A DNA stretch of 64,000 nucleotides. It comes from Vulcanimicrobiota bacterium (GTDB lineage Bacteria > Vulcanimicrobiota > Xenobia > Xenobiales > JADMJV01). The notes under the pieces are model-generated. The model saw only the letters and a program-made list of their open reading frames with translations. It ran no database searches and was not told where the DNA came from. Shown here piece by piece: positions 45,591-55,614 of the stretch; the stretch's first letter is position 1, and each line of letters opens with the position of its first letter. The stretch spans positions 102,488 to 166,487 of the forward strand of contig JBFWNU010000009.1 of assembly GCA_050250895.1 (NCBI GenBank), given 5' to 3'. The translations under genes were made by a program, and so were the position numbers.

Positions 45591-45758
45591 TCAACCGCGC
45601 CCGGCGGTTGCCATGTAACCCAACAACAGGCCATACAGGCCAGCCGTCCACGGGTTACACATCAGGCCTCAGGTGCTGCCGACCTGACGCGAGAGAAAAC
45701 TCCAGCCCAGGCCGATCAGAAGGCCAACTCCCATACCGATCAAGGTCTTCGATGTCAT
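45591..45758 (-). CDS. Putative small membrane selenoprotein, DUF6132-like (55 aa; Sec at codon 30)
   Basis: GGAGGT RBS; MTSKTLIGMGVGLLIGLGWSFLSRQVGST-UGA-GLMCNPWTAGLYGLLLGYMATAGRG; SECIS-like hairpin downstream of UGA. Confidence 0.75.
45612..45662 (-). promoter_or_regulatory. Candidate bacterial SECIS element
   Basis: TGTAACCC...GGGTTACA lower stem; apical GGCC-TGTAT-GGCC; loop starts 31 nt after UGA. Confidence 0.7.
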
Positions 45759-45880
45759 GGCCACCTCCAAATCTAACATTCTCAATATACCAATTTGGAT
45801 GACCAAGATCAAGCCACGGCCTGCACTGGGTGACCCGCACCTGGCGGGATTCCTGGCCCCTGCGCGGAGAACACCCAGAA

Positions 45881-46315
45881 ATGCGGTGGCCAATCATCCT
45901 CTGTCTACTTTGGATCGTTCAAGGGCCGGTCATGAGTGAGCCCAGCCTGACCGGTCGTTGGGTGACTTCAGACCTGCTCTGGAAGGATCCCGATACTCTC
46001 GAGCCACCGCGCGAACTGGTTCTCGAGCTGAGCGAGGATGGTCAAGCCCGGCTGGACAGCTGCGTCATCTCCCGCGTTTATCGCACCACTGTCGAAGGTT
46101 GCTTCTTGCAAGAGACCCGCAGTGACGAACGCCACCTCGAAGGTCGGTACGAGCTGGTCGATTCGGTGTTGCGTTTCCACTGGACTCGGCCCGACCCTGT
46201 CCTGAGCCCATTTTTCGTTCTCGATGGCAACACTTATTGCTGGCCGACCACCAGCCTGTGGCCGCTCACCGTCGACCTGCCTGCGATGGTCATGGAGTTT
46301 CGTCGGCCGCGTTAG
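45881..46315 (+). CDS. Hypothetical exported protein
   Basis: Signal-peptide-like MRWPIILCLLWIV; GGAGA upstream. Confidence 0.55.
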   Translation: MRWPIILCLLWIVQGPVMSEPSLTGRWVTSDLLWKDPDTLEPPRELVLELSEDGQARLDSCVISRVYRTTVEGCFLQETRSDERHLEGRYELVDSVLRFHWTRPDPVLSPFFVLDGNTYCWPTTSLWPLTVDLPAMVMEFRRPR

Positions 46316-47028
46316 ACGAAGCGAGGAAACATCTGGCGCCAAAGGGGCCAGTCGTGGATGCCCGGATCCTCCCAGACTTCGAGGCGATGACCGATGCCCT
46401 GCCGCTCGAGGATGCCGGCCAGATTGATGGTCGGCCCCAGGCAGAAATCCCAGCGGCCGGCTCCCAGAATGATGTCCATCTCACGGAAGGCGGCCAACAG
46501 CTCGGGGTCGGTGACGTTGGGCATAAAGTGAGGCGGGCAGTTGTAATACACATCGTCGTCATAGTAGCCGTCGACGCACTGACAAATGTCGTAGTCGCCC
46601 GACATGGCGATGACGCGCTTCACCAGGCGGGGGTGTCGAAAGCTGAAGTTGACGGCGTGAAAAGCGCCAAAGCTGGCCCCCGTCACCATCAAGAAAGGGT
46701 TCTGGTTGACGCTCCTGAGATATGGCAAGAACTCGTCGAGCAGATAGGCTTCGAACTGAAGGTGGCGCTCGAGCTGGTCAAACTGGTGAGCCTCGAAGTT
46801 ATACCACGACTCGCGGTCGACCGAGTCGATACAGAACAGCTGAATCCAGCCGTTGGCTAGATGCCGGGCCACCGGCCCCAGCATGCCGAAGTCTTCCCAC
46901 TGATAGAACTTGCCTCCCGAGGTCGGAAAGACCAGCACCGGAGCGCCACCGTGACCGAGGACCAGGTGTTCCATCCGGCGCTCGAGATGTTGGCTCTCGA
47001 GGAAGCCGTAATGACGGGCGTAGCTCAC
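46312..47028 (-). CDS. Putative esterase (alpha/beta hydrolase)
   Basis: GH.G.PVLVFPTSGG, GASFG nucleophile elbow, HDWP.W. Confidence 0.9.
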   Translation of the reverse strand: MSYARHYGFLESQHLERRMEHLVLGHGGAPVLVFPTSGGKFYQWEDFGMLGPVARHLANGWIQLFCIDSVDRESWYNFEAHQFDQLERHLQFEAYLLDEFLPYLRSVNQNPFLMVTGASFGAFHAVNFSFRHPRLVKRVIAMSGDYDICQCVDGYYDDDVYYNCPPHFMPNVTDPELLAAFREMDIILGAGRWDFCLGPTINLAGILERQGIGHRLEVWEDPGIHDWPLWRQMFPRFV

Positions 47029-50000
47029 TTGGTCGAGGTGAGTTCGAGTTCGCTGAATCCATCAGACTCGGGCTGCTCGGCTGCCTCGGGGGCGGGCGTT
47101 GCAGCCGGCTGCGGCGCCTCGAGCCAGTTCATCTTGATGACGGCCCGGCGCAACACGTCGGGATTCGGCTCAAAGAAGATCCAGCGGCTACAGACGAGGT
47201 CGGCCGTGGCCTGATCGTCGGTGGCCAGCAGGGTGAGTTCGCGCAGGGTCGCGCGCAATTGGGTCATGCGAGAGGGGCGCACCTCGAGAAACGCCTCGAT
47301 GGTGGCTCGTCGCACGGCCTCCATCCGCTGTTCATGAATCGAGAGCTCGCGGATCAAGCTCAGCCCCAGGCTGGGATTCTCGCGGATCGTGGCCCGGGCC
47401 AGTTCGATGCGAGCCTGACCTGCGACGGCCACTGAACCGATCTGCTCGAGACGCGCCAGGGCAGCCTCGGTCTGGCCCAAGGCCATTTCGACCTTGAGCA
47501 GGGCGAGGTGGGCTTCGTCCGCTTCGTATCCTTTTAGCCTCTTGAGCGAGCCCGAGGCCTTCTTGAGCAGCTTCTCGACCTCGCCCTTCAGTTGCAGGCG
47601 GTTGGCCAGGCCGGCCGCCAACAGCAGGGCTCCTGATCCGGTCAACTCGAGTGCCGACAGCTGGGACAGGGCCGCAAAGGCGCGACTCAGGCATTCCCTG
47701 GCGTCATCGTGGGCCAGCAACTGGTGATGGGTCGAAGCCATGGCCACCAGCCCCTCGGCCTGCTCGGCAGCCGAGGCCTCTTCTACTGATTCGCCCGCTT
47801 CTTTGAGCAGCTGATGCAGCCGGCGGTCCTCGCCAGCCATGCCGAACTGGGTGGCCAGATTGGCCAGGGTCACCGCCTTCTGGCTGCCGTTGCTCATGGC
47901 GCGGGCAGCGGCTACCGCCTGACTGAGAAGCTTCTGTCCCCACTCGCTATCCCCCAGCCGGGACAAACTGCCGGCCAGGGTGGAAAGAGCGGCGGCCTTG
48001 AGCTGGGGCGCCAGACCGTCGGCTTGCAAGGTGGCCTCGGCGCCGACCTGCAGATACTCGGTCGAGGTCTGTTCGCTGCTCGACATCAGGGCCATCTTCA
48101 TGGTGCCGCGGCAACTATGGTCGATATCGACCGAGTGGGTCTCGACCTGGATGGAGTGATAAGCCAGATCCCGGGCCCGGGCGCGATGGCCGGTCCGGGC
48201 CACCGCTCCGGCCACGAACGACAGGGTTTCGGAGCGCGTGGCAGGGTCTTCAATGGTGAAGGCCATGGCGGCGGCCTCGGAAAAACTGCGACTGGCTTCG
48301 CGGGTCGAGCGCAAACGGTGCAGGCCCACCCCGATGTCGGCCAGGGCTTTGGCCTGAAGTGAACGGTCGTCGAAAGCTCCGGCCAGGGCTGACAGGCGCT
48401 CGTAGGCCTCGAGCGCTTTGTCGGAACGCTCCAGCCGGCTCAGGCAAGAAGAGAGGCCAAAGATGGCCCGCAGGCGCTCGGCCGGCACGTGCACGGTAGC
48501 TGCCGCCTGCACCAGTTGCAGAAAGGCCTCAGGCACCCAGTCGAAGGCTCGCACCTCAGACAGCGCCTCACCCAACTCGACATACCCGCTGACCCGGCCG
48601 GGGTCCCAGGGGCGGGCACTGACCGCCCCCAGCAGGTCGCCGAACGCCTTTTGCGGCGTCTTGGCTCGCGAGAAGACTTTGCGGTCCACGCGGTCCGGAG
48701 CCCGTTCGGGCACCGGCAGATTCTCGCCCAGTTCGGCCAACCCGCTCACCAGGGCGGCCTCACGCAGGTCCCTGGGCGGACCGGCAGGAGCCGCCTTGAG
48801 GCACTCGAGGCCGGCCTTGAAGGCCCGCTTGCGCAGCGGGTCGCCCAGCACCGAGATCCGTCCGAAGCCGAGCCAATAGGTGGCCTGGCGCAGCGGCTCT
48901 TCTTCGAGGGCCAAGAGAGCGAAGGCCTTCTCGGTATAGTTGGGATCGCTGGCGAAGTCGGCCAGGATCCGCAAGACCAGGGGAAGATCGACATCACGAA
49001 ACTGGGGTAGCGGGATGGCCAGAGCTTCGTCAAGGATGCTCTGAGCCAGCTCGTGACGACCCTCTTCCCAGGCCTGCCAGGCCAGCAGCAGAAAGGTCTT
49101 GAAGCGGCATCCTTCGGCGGCGATCATGCGGGCGTTGTCGAGGGCTCGGTCAAAGTCGCCCGAGTCGGCCTGGTGATGAGTGATTACCGCCGTCTGGTTG
49201 GCCCGCATGCGCGGCATGCCCAGGCCGTAGGCCAGGATGCGCGGCAGGTCGCCCTCTTCGAGGGCCGCCTCGAGCCCCCGATGCAGGTCCTCGAGCACCG
49301 ACCTCACCGAGCCCGTGCGGGCCAGTTTAGAGTGGATGTAGGGACCTTCGCACAGCCAGTGCAGGATGGAAAAATCACGCCGCCGCGAGGAGCGGGCCAG
49401 CCGGTCGCAATGATAGCCCAGGTACATCCAGCCATAGATGTCGTTCATCTCTTCCCAAGACGGATAGGTCTCGCGGAAGAAGGCCACCACGCGGCCGTGA
49501 GTGGCCACCAGGTCGCGGCGCAGCAAGTTCGAGATCACGATTTGCATCTGGCGCGAAAACAGGCAAATCTTCTCTCCCTGGTTGCGCAAGATGGGCAGCA
49601 TGGCCTCGAGCAATCCGTGGACCCGAGCGGCCGAAAGGCCTAGAAAATCGGCGATCGAGGCCGGTGCCAGCGGCTCGGGAGCCTCGCTCAGCAGCCCTGC
49701 CATCAGGCAGATATCGGCCTGCATGTCGGCCGGCAGACTGTGCAGTAGCTCGCGCCAGGCCAGGGCCAGGACCAGCGACAACTTGCCCGGCACGATGTCG
49801 CCTTCGGGCAGGCCCTCGCGAACAAAGTGCTGGGCCACCAGGAAGTTGCCCTGACTGCGTTCGAGATAGGTCTCGAGCTTGTCGTTGCTAAGGCCCTCGC
49901 TCTTAAGGTAGTCGCGCAGGTCCTCGCGATTGCGCTCATCGCGCGAATCGAGCGCAATCACCTCGGCGCCGCCGCGGTAGAGGGCGGCCAGATGAGCCCC

Positions 50001-50435
50001 CGGCCGGCAGGCGATGATCACCCGCACGCCCGGAATGGGCCGGTCGAGACCGGCCAAGCCGCCGGCATCCCAGAGCCAGCCGCCGCGTTCAAACGAGTCG
50101 ACCACGATGAGGCGTTCTTTCTTGCCCCCGGGAGGCAGCATCTCTTCGGCCCAGGCCACCGACTCGTGCACGGTCGAAGGCAGGCGTTTGCCCTCGAGGT
50201 CGAGCTGGGCCAGCAGAGCGTGCCAGAAGCCGATACCGACGTTCGTGCCCAGGGTGGGGCGAACCGAGACCCAGAGGCTGTCAGATTCGTCCTTGACCAG
50301 ATCGCGCAGAAATGCGGTCTTGCCCGCGCCTGGTTCTCCGATTAGAACCATCATCGGTGGTCCGTTCTTGCGCCACTGCTCCACTGCGTCACGCAGCCAT
50401 TTGCGACCGACCAGACCGGATTTCTGCTTCGCCAT
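47025..50435 (-). CDS. STAND/NACHT-like P-loop NTPase with long TPR-like helical repeats
   Basis: VGR.WL, GEPGAGKT Walker A, IVVDSFE Walker B, IACR, GNF; Ala/Leu-rich helical repeats. Confidence 0.75.
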   Translation of the reverse strand: MAKQKSGLVGRKWLRDAVEQWRKNGPPMMVLIGEPGAGKTAFLRDLVKDESDSLWVSVRPTLGTNVGIGFWHALLAQLDLEGKRLPSTVHESVAWAEEMLPPGGKKERLIVVDSFERGGWLWDAGGLAGLDRPIPGVRVIIACRPGAHLAALYRGGAEVIALDSRDERNREDLRDYLKSEGLSNDKLETYLERSQGNFLVAQHFVREGLPEGDIVPGKLSLVLALAWRELLHSLPADMQADICLMAGLLSEAPEPLAPASIADFLGLSAARVHGLLEAMLPILRNQGEKICLFSRQMQIVISNLLRRDLVATHGRVVAFFRETYPSWEEMNDIYGWMYLGYHCDRLARSSRRRDFSILHWLCEGPYIHSKLARTGSVRSVLEDLHRGLEAALEEGDLPRILAYGLGMPRMRANQTAVITHHQADSGDFDRALDNARMIAAEGCRFKTFLLLAWQAWEEGRHELAQSILDEALAIPLPQFRDVDLPLVLRILADFASDPNYTEKAFALLALEEEPLRQATYWLGFGRISVLGDPLRKRAFKAGLECLKAAPAGPPRDLREAALVSGLAELGENLPVPERAPDRVDRKVFSRAKTPQKAFGDLLGAVSARPWDPGRVSGYVELGEALSEVRAFDWVPEAFLQLVQAAATVHVPAERLRAIFGLSSCLSRLERSDKALEAYERLSALAGAFDDRSLQAKALADIGVGLHRLRSTREASRSFSEAAAMAFTIEDPATRSETLSFVAGAVARTGHRARARDLAYHSIQVETHSVDIDHSCRGTMKMALMSSSEQTSTEYLQVGAEATLQADGLAPQLKAAALSTLAGSLSRLGDSEWGQKLLSQAVAAARAMSNGSQKAVTLANLATQFGMAGEDRRLHQLLKEAGESVEEASAAEQAEGLVAMASTHHQLLAHDDARECLSRAFAALSQLSALELTGSGALLLAAGLANRLQLKGEVEKLLKKASGSLKRLKGYEADEAHLALLKVEMALGQTEAALARLEQIGSVAVAGQARIELARATIRENPSLGLSLIRELSIHEQRMEAVRRATIEAFLEVRPSRMTQLRATLRELTLLATDDQATADLVCSRWIFFEPNPDVLRRAVIKMNWLEAPQPAATPAPEAAEQPESDGFSELELTSTK

Positions 50436-50527
50436 GGGCCCTCCAGGGAAAGAGTGGGACGGTTCTTCGGGAAAGGCCGACCTAGTCCTCTGCAGGGATC
50501 GCTCGGCAATCTGCAAAGAATCGGCCC

Positions 50528-51502
50528 ATGACCAGCACTACTCCGGGAGTCCTCGAAACCACCCTGCCGGTGGTCGAGCAAGCCGACCATGTGCGGCTCG
50601 ATCGCGACCGCATCGACGCCCTCTGCCAGCAATGGCTCGACAGCTCCTTTAGCGTGCCCAACTGGGACGACGCCGTGCACTGGAGCGACGGCAGCGAGCG
50701 CACGGCCAACGCAGTGCTGCTGCTCGACGCCCTGAACTTCTGCTTCTGGCCCGACCCCGGCCAACCCAGGTGGGCCATCGACTACCAGGGGCGCCGCTAC
50801 AACGGCTATATGGCGCTGGCGGCGAGCCTCAAGCGGGCCATGGAAGAAGGCGACCCTCTCTATGACGCGGATCGTCTGGCCGAACTGTCCCTCGACGACC
50901 TGAAACATATCTTTCGGGGCGAAAACGAGATTCCGATGCTCGAAAAGCGCCTGGCCAACGCTCGCGAAATCGGCCAGGTCTTGTCGTCGCGCTGGCAGGG
51001 GCAGTTCGCCCGGGTCATCGAGAAAGCGGCCGGTTCGGCCGTCTACTTGACCGACCTGTTGACCCACGAATTCTCGAGCTTTCGCGATGTCACCACCTAT
51101 AAGGGCCAGGAAGTGCGTCTGCTCAAGCGCGCTCAGATCTGCGTCATCGATTTGTTAGGCACGTTTGGTGGCCAGGGGCTGGGGCACTTTTCCGACGCCG
51201 GTCAACTGACCGCCTTTGCCGACTACAAGATCCCCCAGGTGCTCGAAGCGCAGGGGGCCCTGGTCTATAGCTCGGACTTATGCGCCACCCTCGACAACTA
51301 TCAACTGATCCCCCCCGGGGATTCGCGCGAAGTGGAGATTCGGGCCGGCATGGTCTGGGCGGTCGAGTATCTACGCCAGGGTTTCGAACGCCTCGGCCGC
51401 GCCACTTCGGCCTATGAACTGGACTGGTTCTTGTGGAACGTCGGCCAGCGCCCGGTCGAAAACGAGCGCCCCTACCACCGCACCCGCACGATCTATTATT
51501 AG
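50528..51502 (+). CDS. Queuosine salvage protein (DUF2419/Qng1 family)
   Basis: LNFCFW, FRD, KRAQI, FADYKIPQVL, EVEIRA, HRTRTIYY. Confidence 0.9.
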   Translation: MTSTTPGVLETTLPVVEQADHVRLDRDRIDALCQQWLDSSFSVPNWDDAVHWSDGSERTANAVLLLDALNFCFWPDPGQPRWAIDYQGRRYNGYMALAASLKRAMEEGDPLYDADRLAELSLDDLKHIFRGENEIPMLEKRLANAREIGQVLSSRWQGQFARVIEKAAGSAVYLTDLLTHEFSSFRDVTTYKGQEVRLLKRAQICVIDLLGTFGGQGLGHFSDAGQLTAFADYKIPQVLEAQGALVYSSDLCATLDNYQLIPPGDSREVEIRAGMVWAVEYLRQGFERLGRATSAYELDWFLWNVGQRPVENERPYHRTRTIYY

Positions 51503-51592
51503 GGGCCGGACGGGCCCGAACTGATGGGTGAAACCTGGGAACTGGACCTTTAGCGAAGGGCCATCTTTGGCCAGCGCCGAACGGCCCAGCCG

Positions 51593-53809
51593 ATGTTTCG
51601 GTTCTCTCTCGCCGTCCTTTTGATTCTTGCCAGCCTGGCCAGCGCCCAGGCCCGTCCGCGTTATAGTGTGCGGGTAGGCGACCAGCCCGGCAAGTGGGAA
51701 GCGAGGGCGGCCGAGGATCTGGCCAGGTATCTGGGCCAGGTCATGGAGGCCGAGATGGTCGAGAGCGGCCAGGCTGAATTGACCTTCGTGGTCGGCAAGC
51801 TGGCCCTCGACGAATGCCCCCCGTTGCAGAGGAGCCTGGCCGGGCTGACCCAAAAGCCCCCCGTGATCCGGCGCGACGCCATCGCCCTCGAGCAGGTGGG
51901 TTCGACCATCTATCTGGCCGGCAGCAACGACGACTCGCACTACTTCGCCGTTGCCTATCTACTGCAAAAGCTGGGATGCCGCTGGTATATGCCGACCGAG
52001 TTCGGCGAGTATGTGCCCCGGCTGCAGCAGTGGCCGCTCCCCAAACTCTCGGTGGCCTATGCCCCCCCTTTCGAGGTGCGCACCTACTGGATCTCCTGGA
52101 ACGGCGACCGCCAGGGCTATGAAGAGTTCGCCCACCGCAACTTCTACAACCTCGAGCGCAACCCGCCCGGCGGCCACGCTCTGGGCGTCAGTCGCTTCAC
52201 CAAGGACGAACTGCCCATGGACGGCAGCTGGAACAGCCCCGCCACCATCGCGGCGGTGGCTAAATCGTTCGAGCCCGACTTTGGGGCCGGCAAGTCGTTC
52301 TCGCTGGCCATCAAGGACATGGTCCAGCGGCGCCTGGATGGCCCGGACTCGGTCCTGGGTGGAGGCCTTCACGACAAGTTTTTCCATGCCCCGGCGGTCA
52401 GCGACATCTTTCTGGCCTTCTACAACGCGGTCTGCACCGAGCTGATCAGGTTGCATCCCCAGAGCCAGGCCAAAATCGGGTTTCTGGCCTATGTCAACCT
52501 GACTCTGGCTCCTCAACGCAACATCGTGGCCGCCGCCCCGCTGGTCGCCTATCTGGCTCCCATCGATATCGACCCTCTGCATGCCATGGGCGATCCTCGC
52601 TCTCCGGAGAAATCCGACTACCAGGGCGCCCTTACGCGTTGGGCCGAGGTCATGCAGGGCCGGGTGGTCATCTACGATTATGACCAGAGCATGCTGGTCT
52701 GGCGCGACCTGCCCAATCCTTCCCACGAGGTCCTGCGCAAAGAAATCAAGCTCTATCAAAAGCTCGGCATCCTGGGCTTTGCCACCGAGAGCCGCAACGC
52801 CATCGCGACCACCTTTACCAACCTCTTCTTCCGGGGGCAGCTCTATTGGAACCCCGACTTTGACGTCGAGGGCGAGCTCGCGCTCTTCTATCGCAACTTC
52901 TACGGTCCGATGGCCGAGCCGATGTCCCACTACTGGAGCGCCATCTATGCGGCCTGGGAGGCCACTCCCCTCACCTATCACGAGTTCTTTGTCATCCCCG
53001 ATATCTACACCCCCGAGCTGGTCACGCGATTGGGGCAGCACCTGCAGGCGGCCGAGGCGCTGGCCGGCCAGCTCACCCCGCGCGAGCAACAGCGGCTGGA
53101 GTTCACTCGCCGCAGCCTGGGGCTGATCGAAGCCTACACCGAGATGGCCCGAAAAGCCGGCTCGGAATGCGACTTCAGCGCAGCCGTGGCGGCCGGTAAG
53201 CGCGGATTGGCGATCCGCGAAGAGCTGACCAAAGCCAGCGGCATCTTCACTACCTATGTCAAAATGCCCGAAAAGGGTCCGGCCTGGTGGCCGGGCGAGG
53301 TGGAGTATTACGGTCAGCTCGAGCAACTCTGCCAGGGAGCAGCCGGTCGGCTGGTGGCCCAAACCCCGCTACGGTGGAAGTTTCAAGCCGACCCCTATGA
53401 CGAGGGCTTATGGCGCAACTGGGGCGTGGATCCTCCTGATGCCGGTTGGGCTAGCCTGAAGGTCGACAGCTTGCCGCGGGCCCAGGGCGTCTACGCGTCG
53501 GACTACCACAGCCCCGAAGGGTTCGGTTGGTATACCTGCAGCCTGAGCCTGAGCAAACTCCCGGCCCGGCCTCATCTCGCCTTTCCCGGGCTATTCAACG
53601 AGAGCTGGCTCTATGTCAACGGTGAGTTGGTGGCCCACCGACCCCAACAGGCCCTGTGGTGGCTCAACGACTATCGCTTCTTGTGGGATGTCGACCTGGC
53701 CGGCAAGCTGCGCAAAGGCAACAACCAGTTCGTCTTGCGCACCAAAATCGACCGCCATCCCAGCGGCATGTTCCGGCGCCCCTTCGTGTATGAGGCGGTG
53801 GCTCGATGA
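51593..53809 (+). CDS. Secreted DUF4838-type glycoside-hydrolase-like protein
   Basis: Signal peptide; LGCRWYMP..FGE.VP, FLAY, WNP...FY..FYG, C-terminal beta-sandwich. Confidence 0.7.
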   Translation: MFRFSLAVLLILASLASAQARPRYSVRVGDQPGKWEARAAEDLARYLGQVMEAEMVESGQAELTFVVGKLALDECPPLQRSLAGLTQKPPVIRRDAIALEQVGSTIYLAGSNDDSHYFAVAYLLQKLGCRWYMPTEFGEYVPRLQQWPLPKLSVAYAPPFEVRTYWISWNGDRQGYEEFAHRNFYNLERNPPGGHALGVSRFTKDELPMDGSWNSPATIAAVAKSFEPDFGAGKSFSLAIKDMVQRRLDGPDSVLGGGLHDKFFHAPAVSDIFLAFYNAVCTELIRLHPQSQAKIGFLAYVNLTLAPQRNIVAAAPLVAYLAPIDIDPLHAMGDPRSPEKSDYQGALTRWAEVMQGRVVIYDYDQSMLVWRDLPNPSHEVLRKEIKLYQKLGILGFATESRNAIATTFTNLFFRGQLYWNPDFDVEGELALFYRNFYGPMAEPMSHYWSAIYAAWEATPLTYHEFFVIPDIYTPELVTRLGQHLQAAEALAGQLTPREQQRLEFTRRSLGLIEAYTEMARKAGSECDFSAAVAAGKRGLAIREELTKASGIFTTYVKMPEKGPAWWPGEVEYYGQLEQLCQGAAGRLVAQTPLRWKFQADPYDEGLWRNWGVDPPDAGWASLKVDSLPRAQGVYASDYHSPEGFGWYTCSLSLSKLPARPHLAFPGLFNESWLYVNGELVAHRPQQALWWLNDYRFLWDVDLAGKLRKGNNQFVLRTKIDRHPSGMFRRPFVYEAVAR

Positions 53810-54414
53810 CCTATCGCAGTCACGGTAAGCGGCTGTTCGACCTGGTGGCCGCCGGGTTGGGCCTGATCCTGTTGTCTCCGGTGTTGGCGGGGCTGGCCCT
53901 GCTGGTGCGCCAACGCCTGGGATCGCCGGTCTTGTTTCGCCAGCAGCGCCCCGGCAAAGACGGTAAGATCTTCGAGCTGGTCAAGTTTCGCTCGATGACC
54001 GACGAGCGCGACCCGTCCGGCCAGCTCTATCCCGACGAGCGGCGCCTGACCCCGTTTGGCCAGTTTCTGCGCAGCACCAGCCTGGATGAGTTACCCGAGC
54101 TCATCAACGTGCTCAAGGGCGAGATGAGCCTGGTGGGCCCGCGTCCGCTGCTGGTGAAGTATCTCGAGCGGTACAACGATTTTCAGCGACGCCGCCTGGA
54201 AGTCAGGCCCGGCATCACCGGCTGGGCTCAGGTCAACGGACGCAACGCCACCGACTGGAACGAGCGCTTTCGCCAGGATGTCTACTACATCGACCATATG
54301 TCGCTGGCCCTCGACCTCAAGATCCTGTTTATGACCGTCAAGGCGGTGGTGGTGCGCGAGGGTATCTCGCGAGAAGGCCACGCCACCATGCCCGAATTTT
54401 TGGGCGACGACTGA
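53806..54414 (+). CDS. Undecaprenyl-phosphate sugar phosphotransferase (PglC-like)
   Basis: [37 protein letters not shown]. Confidence 0.95.
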
Positions 54415-54454
54415 CTTTCACGATGGTTTGAGGGCCTCGCACTAGATTCAGGGG

Positions 54455-55354
54455 GTGAACCTCTGGCGCCTCTACCACCGTTTCACCCAGCCGAGTCAGC
54501 AACTCTCGGTGGCTCAGGCACGCCAGCACAAAGGCTTTCAGAAGCTCGAGCAAGAGGTGGCCGAACTGACCGGCGCCCTGAGCGATCGCTACCAGGGCCA
54601 GACCACCGACCTGTTCGACCCCAACCTCGACGGTTGGTTGACCCAGGCGAAACTGGTCGAGGGCCGGCCGGTCGAGGTCAAAGCCACCGGCTACGGCATC
54701 AGCTCGAGGACCGAGCTACACCTGAACTGGACTCCTTCCGGCTGGGAAGCACGGCGTCTCTATCTCTTCGAAGGCTGCGCCGGCGAGGACCTGATGGCCA
54801 CCGAACAAAACGCCCACCTGGACGGCGGACAGGTGAAGCTGCAAGAATTCGACTTCTCCGAGTCAGGCCTCTCTATCTATAGAGACCAGCGCTGGGTGGT
54901 CAACGGCCGGCGGGCGGCGCTGGCCGCCATGGTAGACCAACCTATCGACCAGGAGTGGGTCGCCCGGGCTCGCCGACTCGGGTCCGAAGAGCAAGTCGTC
55001 AAGACCTGGAAGACGGCTGTCGCTGGCCACGGGGACCGTCTGCCCGGTCTAAGCCAGTTGCTCGAAGCCGACCCGGCTGCAACTCTCGAGCAGATCGGCT
55101 CGGTCCAAACCCCGGGCTGGCCGCGATTCGAGCGGTTGCTCGCGGTTTTCGGTCGCGAGCCGTCGGGACTGCTGGCCGCGGCCAAAGGTCTGGATTGGCT
55201 CGACGCGCAACGCGCCCAGGGTCTCGACGAGAGCACCGCCTTCCAGCGATTACTGGCTTCTCACCTGCCGGCCACGCTGTCGTTCGCGAGCGTAGGTTTA
55301 AACCTGGAAGAGGACTATCTTCAGGTGGGCAGTTTCGGCCTGGACCGCCACTAG
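54455..55354 (+). CDS. Hypothetical protein with a conserved-looking C-terminal motif
   Basis: Open ORF; ends VGLNLEEDYLQVGSFGLDRH. Confidence 0.7.
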   Translation: MNLWRLYHRFTQPSQQLSVAQARQHKGFQKLEQEVAELTGALSDRYQGQTTDLFDPNLDGWLTQAKLVEGRPVEVKATGYGISSRTELHLNWTPSGWEARRLYLFEGCAGEDLMATEQNAHLDGGQVKLQEFDFSESGLSIYRDQRWVVNGRRAALAAMVDQPIDQEWVARARRLGSEEQVVKTWKTAVAGHGDRLPGLSQLLEADPAATLEQIGSVQTPGWPRFERLLAVFGREPSGLLAAAKGLDWLDAQRAQGLDESTAFQRLLASHLPATLSFASVGLNLEEDYLQVGSFGLDRH

Positions 55355-55375
55355 CGGGCCCTCGCGAGGGCCCGC
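55354..55375. terminator. Perfect 22-bp palindrome between convergent genes (possible bidirectional terminator)
   Basis: GCGGGCCCTCGCGAGGGCCCGC; no U-tract. Confidence 0.5.
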
Positions 55376-55383
55376 CAGGGCTC

Positions 55384-55614
55384 CTAGAGAGCCTTGATGG
55401 CGTCGCGGACCTCGGACCACTGGGCGTGGCGGCCGATCTTCTTCTTCGAGAAGACGCGTTTTCCGTCGACATCGACCTCGAAGGCTCCGCCGCCGGAGGG
55501 AACGAGGGTCAACCCCTCGATTTCGTCACGAAACTCCCCAATCAACTTCTCTGCCATACTGGCAGCCTGAGGAGTGTAGTTTCACATCAAGCAGAATTCG
55601 ATCTGGATCTTCAT
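55384..55614 (-). CDS. SelW/SelT/Rdx family selenoprotein (CxxU), 76 aa
   Basis: GGAGG RBS; MKIQIEFCLM-UGA-NYTPQAAS...LVPSGGGAFEVDVDGKRVFSKK..GRH; absent from the ORF track. Confidence 0.92.
55551..55565 (-). promoter_or_regulatory. Candidate bacterial SECIS apical hairpin
   Basis: CTGCC-AGTAT-GGCAG; loop starts 21 nt after UGA. Confidence 0.75.

Follow-up and report, generated by a model that had tools for sequence, protein, structure and literature searches.

A 64,000-nucleotide (nt) stretch of a Vulcanimicrobiota genome (the window; C9:102488-166487 of genome G000) contains two genes, here called gene 1 and gene 2, in which an in-frame UGA is followed by the same short hairpin tip, GCC-N-GUAU-GGC. 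An earlier note on this DNA had proposed that this tip is a lineage-specific recognition motif for SelB, the carrier of selenocysteine (Sec)-tRNA(Sec). In the analysis described here, the two 13-nt sequences are, with high probability, the apical hairpins of ordinary bacterial selenocysteine insertion sequence (SECIS) elements in two genuine and unrelated selenoprotein genes, whose further likeness, a GCC/GGC closure and an A-U at loop positions 4 and 5, would be coincidental and set no recognition rule. The genome (9.5 Mb, 17 contigs, G+C content of about 63%) was compared with 40 related genomes, including one of the same genus (G001, 98% complete), and with a wider sample of 401 genomes of the phylum, G000 included; "lineage" stands for the genus, family and order groupings of these genomes.

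Two tips with the features of bacterial SECIS hairpins

Both 13-nt sequences are read from the minus strand. At 45629-45641, the plus strand is ggccatacaggcc and its minus-strand reading is GGCCTGTATGGCC, which gives the RNA-sense tip GGCC-UGUAU-GGCC of gene 1 (45641-45629). At 55552-55564, the plus strand is tgccatactggca and the minus-strand reading is TGCCAGTATGGCA, which gives the tip UGCC-AGUAU-GGCA of gene 2 (55564-55552). From the U of the UGA to the G of GCC, the distance is 31 nt in gene 1 and 21 nt in gene 2. The codons of the first tip, GGC CUG UAU GGC, are in phase 0 and encode G-L-Y-G; those of the second, (GC)U GCC AGU AUG GCA, are in phase 2 and encode A-S-M-A. The observation that started this work, one tip motif in two unrelated genes that differ in peptide, codon phase and spacing, is therefore confirmed in the sequence in every detail.

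In the published model of the bacterial SECIS (bSECIS), as set out in PMC13188914, an upper stem of 4-16 bp carries a loop of 3-9 nt, the spacing is 16-37 nt and the minimum free energy (MFE) is −7.5 kcal/mol or lower. In that model, a G is found within the first two loop positions and is followed by G or U; the loop mostly reads N-G-[G/U]-N-N, with N1/N2 able to pair. Both tips of the window agree with this description in loop, in a stem of at least 4 bp and in spacing, and both lie directly after an in-frame Sec-UGA inside conserved coding regions. Their MFE values (gene 1 and gene 2, respectively) are −14.9 and −8.4 kcal/mol for the local fold and −18.6 and −9.2 kcal/mol for the constrained fold, within the limit of the model. 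Folding of the gene 1 UGA plus 62 nt gives −29.5 kcal/mol with a z-score of −4.2, and none of 200 shuffles is as stable. In Rfam, neither hairpin matches a family, and the three matches returned (E 1.7-6.4) are noise. A permissive version of the bSECIS model fits all 10 Sec genes identified in the genome and also 305 of 558 true stops (55%), and is hence not discriminating. A strict coding of the model, limited to the energy of the contiguous stem, excluded gene 1 and gene 2 themselves and was dropped.

Selenocysteine machinery and selenoprotein genes of the genome

The genome encodes one tRNA-Sec and a selD-selA-selB cluster at C1:698421-702633 (minus strand), in which SelB (383 bits) and SelA (517 bits) both score above the curated cut-offs. 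The selD gene is itself interrupted by one in-frame TGA, which is spanned by the TIGR00476 match. The first hairpin downstream of this TGA covaries among relatives (GAUCC/GGAUC, GGUCC/GGACC and AGUCC/GGACU; loci L004, L099-L118). The selD of G002 is a recent cysteine (Cys) convert in which both hairpins are still kept; older Cys forms are without the hairpin.

Sec genes were also sought by a screen free of RNA structure. Its starting set was the 53,271 in-frame TGAs that have a start upstream and 10 or more codons downstream. A codon-usage filter is passed by 2,790 of these, and their read-through peptides were matched against each of the genome's 134,347 stop-to-stop open reading frames (ORFs). 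In 76 hits, a Cys of a paralogue is aligned to the TGA. Six Sec genes were found in this structure-free way: selD by family search, and msrA, fdhA and three thioredoxin-fold genes by the Sec/Cys-paralogue screen. A second scan, which combined tip and coding score, returned 85 candidates, mostly antisense noise, and added two more Sec genes. A Pfam domain spans the TGA in seven of 14 candidates, namely msrA (PMSR), fdhA (Molybdopterin), the three thioredoxin-fold genes, an AhpC/TSA gene and a second Rdx gene located elsewhere in the genome (C4). The thioredoxin-fold genes have the motifs WUPC (one gene) and WUGAC (two genes), and the AhpC/TSA-DsbD_N gene has WUPYC. Together with selD, the other supported one of the 14, and the two window genes, 10 Sec genes were identified. 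Five further scan candidates, all without any domain, were rejected, as was C5:464836, a true stop that separates an S9 peptidase gene from an NMN transporter gene. In this region (C5:462745-465387), the prolyl-oligopeptidase and NMN-transporter genes share a frame and are split by a single TGA followed by a SECIS-like tip; the TGA is read as a true stop, and the case shows that scans by tip plus frame yield false positives.

The predicted tips of the Sec genes are listed in Table 1. A stem of at least 4 bp that closes a 5-nt N-G-U-N-N loop is present in 9/10 Sec genes; in the WUPC gene, there is only a variant tip, in which the loop is AGUU (4 nt) or a bulge is present. The same feature is found after 93 of the 2863 true-stop TGAs of long ORFs (about 3%), and within a narrower interval after 75/2863 TGA, 62/2615 TAG and 27/1399 TAA stops. 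The GGUCU loop of the fdhA tip (GCC-G-GUCU-GGC) is that of fdhF from E. coli, the type example of a bacterial SECIS. The loop G is located at +22 to +25 (five genes, the variant WUPC tip included) or at +35 to +38 (four genes), with none between; these two groups are, it may be remarked, about one A-form helical turn apart. The flexible spacing that had been proposed is seen within the genome, and it is part of the published model.

Table 1 Features of the two window genes and predicted SECIS tips of Sec genes in the genome (stems in lower case, loops in upper case in the tip column).
Feature	Position in window	Strand	Tip	Loop G	Description
Gene 1	45591..45758	-			55 aa, Sec at residue 30, motif G-S-T-U-G-L-M-C-N-P-W; predicted two-helix membrane mini-protein
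Sec-UGA of gene 1	45669..45671	-			in-frame TGA, kept in homologues
Predicted SECIS hairpin, gene 1	45613..45660	-	ggcc-UGUAU-ggcc	+35	lower stem GUGUAACCC/GGGUUACAU, middle stem, apical GGCC-UGUAU-GGCC at 45629-45641
Gene 2	55384..55614	-			76-aa Rdx (SelW-like) selenoprotein, C-L-M-U at residues 8-11; Pfam PF10262
Sec-UGA of gene 2	55582..55584	-			in-frame TGA, kept in orthologues
Predicted SECIS apical hairpin, gene 2	55551..55565	-	cugcc-AGUAU-ggcag	+25	CUGCC-AGUAU-GGCAG or CUGCCA-GUA-UGGCAG; local fold −8.4 kcal/mol
selD tip			uggagca-GGUGC-ugcuccg	+36	
msrA tip			acuccc-AGUUC-gggagu	+23	
Tip of two thioredoxin genes			(c)uggcuc-AGUUU-gaguca(g)	+38	
fdhA tip			ggucgcc-GGUCU-ggcggcc	+22	
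AhpC/TSA tip			ugcagcu-GGUCC-aguugca	+24	
Rdx2 tip			gcggcg-AGUCU-cgccgc	+25	

Distribution of the shared motif

Among the 10 Sec tips, GUAU occurs in two (gene 1 and gene 2) and the GCC/GGC closure in three (gene 1, gene 2 and fdhA). The full motif, GCC-N-GUAU-GGC, is found in 0/8 of the other Sec genes (selD, msrA, fdhA, the three thioredoxin-fold genes, AhpC/TSA and the second Rdx gene). The earlier note had pointed to the fdh, selD and prx genes as a check and had stated beforehand that the motif would fall if other genuine selenoprotein genes of the genome lacked it; fdhA, selD and AhpC/TSA are all without it. The relatives give a similar picture. In the 11 TGA-bearing selD orthologues with loci, the element at +36 reads GGAGCA-GGU[G/U/A]C or AGUUC; seven of them have 4 bp or more, and the motif occurs in none. 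In gene 1, the tips of 29 TGA-bearing members were compared, the window copy included, and GUAU is limited to the window copy (0/28 others). Orthologues of the Rdx protein encoded by gene 2 (E ≤ 1e-5) are present in three of the 40 relatives (G001, G009 and G018), all with TGA. The same-genus orthologue keeps the AGUAU loop on another stem, CCGUC/GGCGG, and thus has GUC in place of GCC; the loops of the remaining two are CGUGU and CGGGU.

At the level of whole genomes, the motif of 10 specified bases, GCCNGTATGGC, has 29 occurrences when both strands of the 9.5-Mb sequence are counted, in comparison to about 37 expected from 63% G+C, and as a word is not enriched. Where a TGA precedes it by 10-45 nt, the match lies in a coding frame only at the two window genes, the others being out of frame or non-coding, and one of the 2863 TGA stops of long ORFs also has it. 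The scan that the earlier note had recommended, TGA-N(12-35)-motif, returned no new gene; in 41 genomes it gave 197 matches versus 162 for a reversed control. Mining of the selenoproteome with this one 11-mer therefore fails: at chance level both genome-wide and in the relatives, the strict motif recovers just the two genes from which it was derived.

A background for the extra likeness of the two tips was obtained from generic tips with a 4-bp stem and an NGTNN loop, 23,669 of which are present genome-wide. AU at loop positions 4-5 is found in 505 of these, and the combination of GCC/GGC closure with AT at loop positions 4-5 in 16 (0.07%). The pattern GCC-N-GUAU-GGC was itself chosen post hoc. 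Closure by G:C pairs and a pyrimidine as the fifth loop base are favored among real tips, and the AU of the gene 2 loop falls in a conserved Ser-Met pair (AGU AUG).

Several points weigh against the assignment of the two tips to ordinary SECIS elements with a coincidental likeness. The extra identity of this one pair is a priori unlikely, at about 1e-3 by estimate, and pure coincidence is not a comfortable explanation. The GCC/GGC closure is over-represented, with 3/10 real tips versus 3.4% of background tips, although this is expected for short stems that need stability. The hairpin of gene 2 is weak when taken alone (z-scores of −0.7 and −0.06). Finally, five redox-motif candidates were chosen by eye from the 76 Cys-aligned hits before Pfam was applied to 14 candidates, and no claim is made that the 10 Sec genes are all those of the genome.

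The alternative that best withstands these results, though it is an unlikely one, is that GUAU tips form a functional SECIS sub-class of the genus, which might for example set the read-through efficiency for small stress-related selenoproteins and would not be required by SelB. In favor of such a sub-class are GUAU in two of 10 tips and in the same-genus Rdx orthologue, the rarity of AU at loop positions 4-5 in the background, and the fact that both genes encode small stand-alone redox-type proteins. Against it, the loops differ in the gene 1 homologues closest to G000 (identity of 59% or less). The search of G001 returned no gene 1 homologue, so that the case consists of three sequences of which two are orthologues, and the AU of gene 2 is fixed by the conserved Ser-Met codons.

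Much less probable is the proposal of the earlier note, in which GCC-N-GUAU-GGC is the SelB recognition motif of the organism's selenoprotein genes, lineage-specific and flexible in spacing. Ten specified bases common to two unrelated genes in different codon phases, the conserved AGUAU loop of the same-genus Rdx orthologue and the fdhA near-variant speak for it. It is contradicted by the absence of the motif from eight of the 10 Sec genes, from the 28 other gene 1 homologues compared and from the 11 Sec-selD orthologues; by the same-genus Rdx gene, which keeps the loop only; by the reversed control; and by the out-of-frame or non-coding position of the remaining TGA-preceded matches, together with the occurrence after a true stop. 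It is less credible still that the UGAs are plain stops of truncated or false genes and the hairpins unrelated to recoding, as the lack of a direct family match for gene 1 might suggest, because the UGA of gene 2 lies inside the Rdx domain as part of an intact CxxU, 32 of 36 matches to the gene 1 family (in 33 genomes) have one in-frame TGA where the CxxxC homologues have their first Cys, and the full Sec machinery is present.

RNA-level constraint in gene 2

The product of gene 2 begins MKIQIEFCLM-U-NYTPQAASMAEKL and matches PF10262 (Rdx, the family of SelW, SelT and SelH) over residues 2-74 (E 9e-18, 64.7 bits, cut-off 22.6). Its loop G is at +25, the position seen in 4/5 of the Rdx genes compared. 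From gene 2 to its same-genus orthologue, GCU..GCA is changed to GCC..GCG, a compensatory replacement of U-A by C-G at two synonymous sites. In this pair, 18 of the 51 codons that encode the same residue are identical, with 5/8 identical in codons 11-22 and 9/37 from codon 25 on. Two codons of the gene 2 tip, AGU and GCA, are also rare ones, with shares of 9% of Ser and 4.3% of Ala, respectively. These observations support an RNA-level constraint in gene 2, for a hairpin with a G-U loop. The claim that selection acts on the RNA is consequently retained for gene 2, on the strength of the compensatory stem change, the codon identity and the rare codons, but not for GCC-N-GUAU-GGC as a specific motif.

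In the neighborhoods of the two window genes (CheR, a GGDEF response regulator, an esterase, an AAA/TPR protein, queuosine salvage, a sugar transferase, a FabA-like protein and a thiolase), no link to selenium is seen. Between the convergent ORF 54455-55354 (plus strand) and gene 2 lies a perfect G+C-rich palindrome, gcgggccctcgcgagggcccgc, at 55354-55375, which probably acts as a bidirectional terminator and to which one of the weak Rfam matches, a spurious one, is due.

The gene 1 family

The product of gene 1, MTSKTLIGMGVGLLIGLGWSFLSRQVGST-U-GLMCNPWTAGLYGLLLGYMATAGRG, is modeled with helices at residues 3-25 and 36-52 and with U30 and C34 in the connecting loop (pLDDT 67). It has no direct match in Pfam or NCBIfam, no match to the DUF6132 model at E ≤ 1, and no match in a word-indexed protein search; such a lack of matches would be expected where gene callers end the gene at the TGA. 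In a six-frame search, homologues were found in 19 of the 40 related genomes. Exactly one in-frame TGA is present in each of the 20 matches with E ≤ 1e-3, two of which are in G015. A profile search extends the family (loci L008-L025, L063-L076) to 33 of the 401 sampled phylum genomes, G000 included, with TGA in 32/36 matches. The TGA aligns with the first Cys of CxxxC homologues, and the core that never varies is U-x-x-x-C-x-P, in most cases as U-x-[LIM]-x-C-N-P-W. A peptide-pattern search of the genome contigs with Cys at the Sec position gave two weak matches of 11-12 residues and no new family members. In one sub-branch (L072, L074 and L075), the motif is C-G-U-x-x-Y-K-N-P-Y, in which the second Cys is replaced by Lys and CxU takes the place of UxxxC.

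A profile built from 19 Sec homologues retrieves 123 small Cys proteins among 1.84 billion representatives. The 17 Cys homologues inspected all have C-x-x-x-C, mostly followed by N-P-[YW]. Of nine that were scanned, seven match Pfam DUF6132 with E < 1e-3; five of these pass the cut-off and two fall slightly short of it, and the scores include 43.5 bits (P0011), 39.6 bits (P0026) and 38.3 bits (P0043). Three of the scanned homologues are full DUF6132-thioredoxin fusions, and a fourth ends at the start of the thioredoxin domain. Alignment of the Sec family with 13 Cys homologues by hhalign places Sec on the first Cys (probability 99.5%, E 1.2e-22), a result that is partly circular, as the Cys set (A4) was drawn from the hits of the Sec profile (A1). 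No conserved genes neighbor the family, but genes for redox-related proteins (thioredoxin, FixG-like ferredoxin, di-haem peroxidase and rhodanese) are frequent among the neighbors; a thioredoxin gene is directly upstream of one Sec homologue. By these sequence comparisons, gene 1 looks like the Sec form of a DUF6132-like family.

The hairpin downstream of the UGA varies within this family. Only 3/29 members combine an NGUNN tip with a stem of 4 bp or more, two of the three by way of a different, proximal hairpin at +23, and the other loops include CUAC, GGUU, CUUC, CCUC and UCUUC. The permissive published bSECIS model fits 15/29 members. A conserved hairpin register was considered and rejected: when the G000 structure is placed on 19 orthologues, 57% is paired, no better than in shuffled or slid controls, and RNAalifold keeps only four pairs. 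The z-score is negative in 13/14 orthologues and ≤ −1.88 in seven. The family thus shows a tendency to fold, and no conserved register is claimed.

The available text of a 2026 review table of 119 prokaryotic selenoprotein families is without the words DUF6132, PF19628, UxxxC and transmembrane (PMC13188914), and the available part of the deep-Sep paper lists other families (PMC12013277). A full-text literature search for "DUF6132" returned nothing relevant; supplementary tables were outside its scope, and a listing under another name is possible. Gene 1 may, although the case falls somewhat short of an even chance, found an uncatalogued family of two-helix membrane selenoproteins of about 55 aa (U-x-x-x-C-N-P-W), the Sec form of DUF6132, which could serve as a thioredoxin-coupled redox module at the membrane surface. 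Its SECIS is atypical and, at the same tentative level, could be a "distinct class"; reviews mention "distinct classes" of bacterial SECIS that are so far undefined. A widespread TGA-bearing DUF6132-like mini-protein with a SECIS that varies between orthologues may merit a short follow-up by curators of selenoprotein families.

Discussion

Established knowledge of the bacterial Sec pathway suggests how the two tips would act. The ribosome would pause at the UGA, and SelB carrying Sec-tRNA(Sec) would, by analogy, bind the hairpin tip 20-35 nt downstream through its C-terminal winged-helix domain and deliver Sec. The part of the tip that the Sec genes of this organism have in common is a short, mostly G:C upper stem and a 5-nt N-G-U-N-N loop, 18-34 nt after the UGA, in which N1 and N5 are often paired and leave G-U-N. 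The additional identity of the two window tips would be a coincidence on top of this generic core and the local coding sequence. For the detection of selenoprotein genes, the discriminating feature here is a stem of at least 4 bp with an N-G-U-N-N loop whose G lies 22-38 nt after the UGA, which is present in 9/10 Sec genes and follows about 3% of the true stops; once a coding filter was added, this generic tip recovered two further selenoprotein genes. The case also cautions that one loose rule in a G+C-rich coding context can make two SECIS elements look specifically alike.

Three known systems are relevant for comparison. The SelW-like/Rdx family (PF10262) is among the listed prokaryotic selenoprotein families (PMC13188914, PMC1794560); gene 2 covers the whole domain with CxxU, and no difference is seen that would set it apart from an ordinary member. 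DUF6132 (PF19628) comprises small membrane proteins with C-x-x-x-C-N-P-[YW], some of them fused to thioredoxin. Gene 1 is like these proteins in length, in its two predicted helices, in motif and in the placement of Sec at the first Cys; in contrast, gene 1 and its 19-member clade have Sec for Cys and no direct match to the Pfam model. With the generic bSECIS (the bSECISearch consensus, as given in PMC13188914), the two window tips have in common an intragenic hairpin after the UGA, G-U at loop positions 2-3, an upper stem of 4 bp or more and the spacing. No categorical difference from this generic element is observed: what marks the window tips is their common GCC/GGC closure and AU at loop positions 4-5, and what marks the genome is its two classes of loop-G position.

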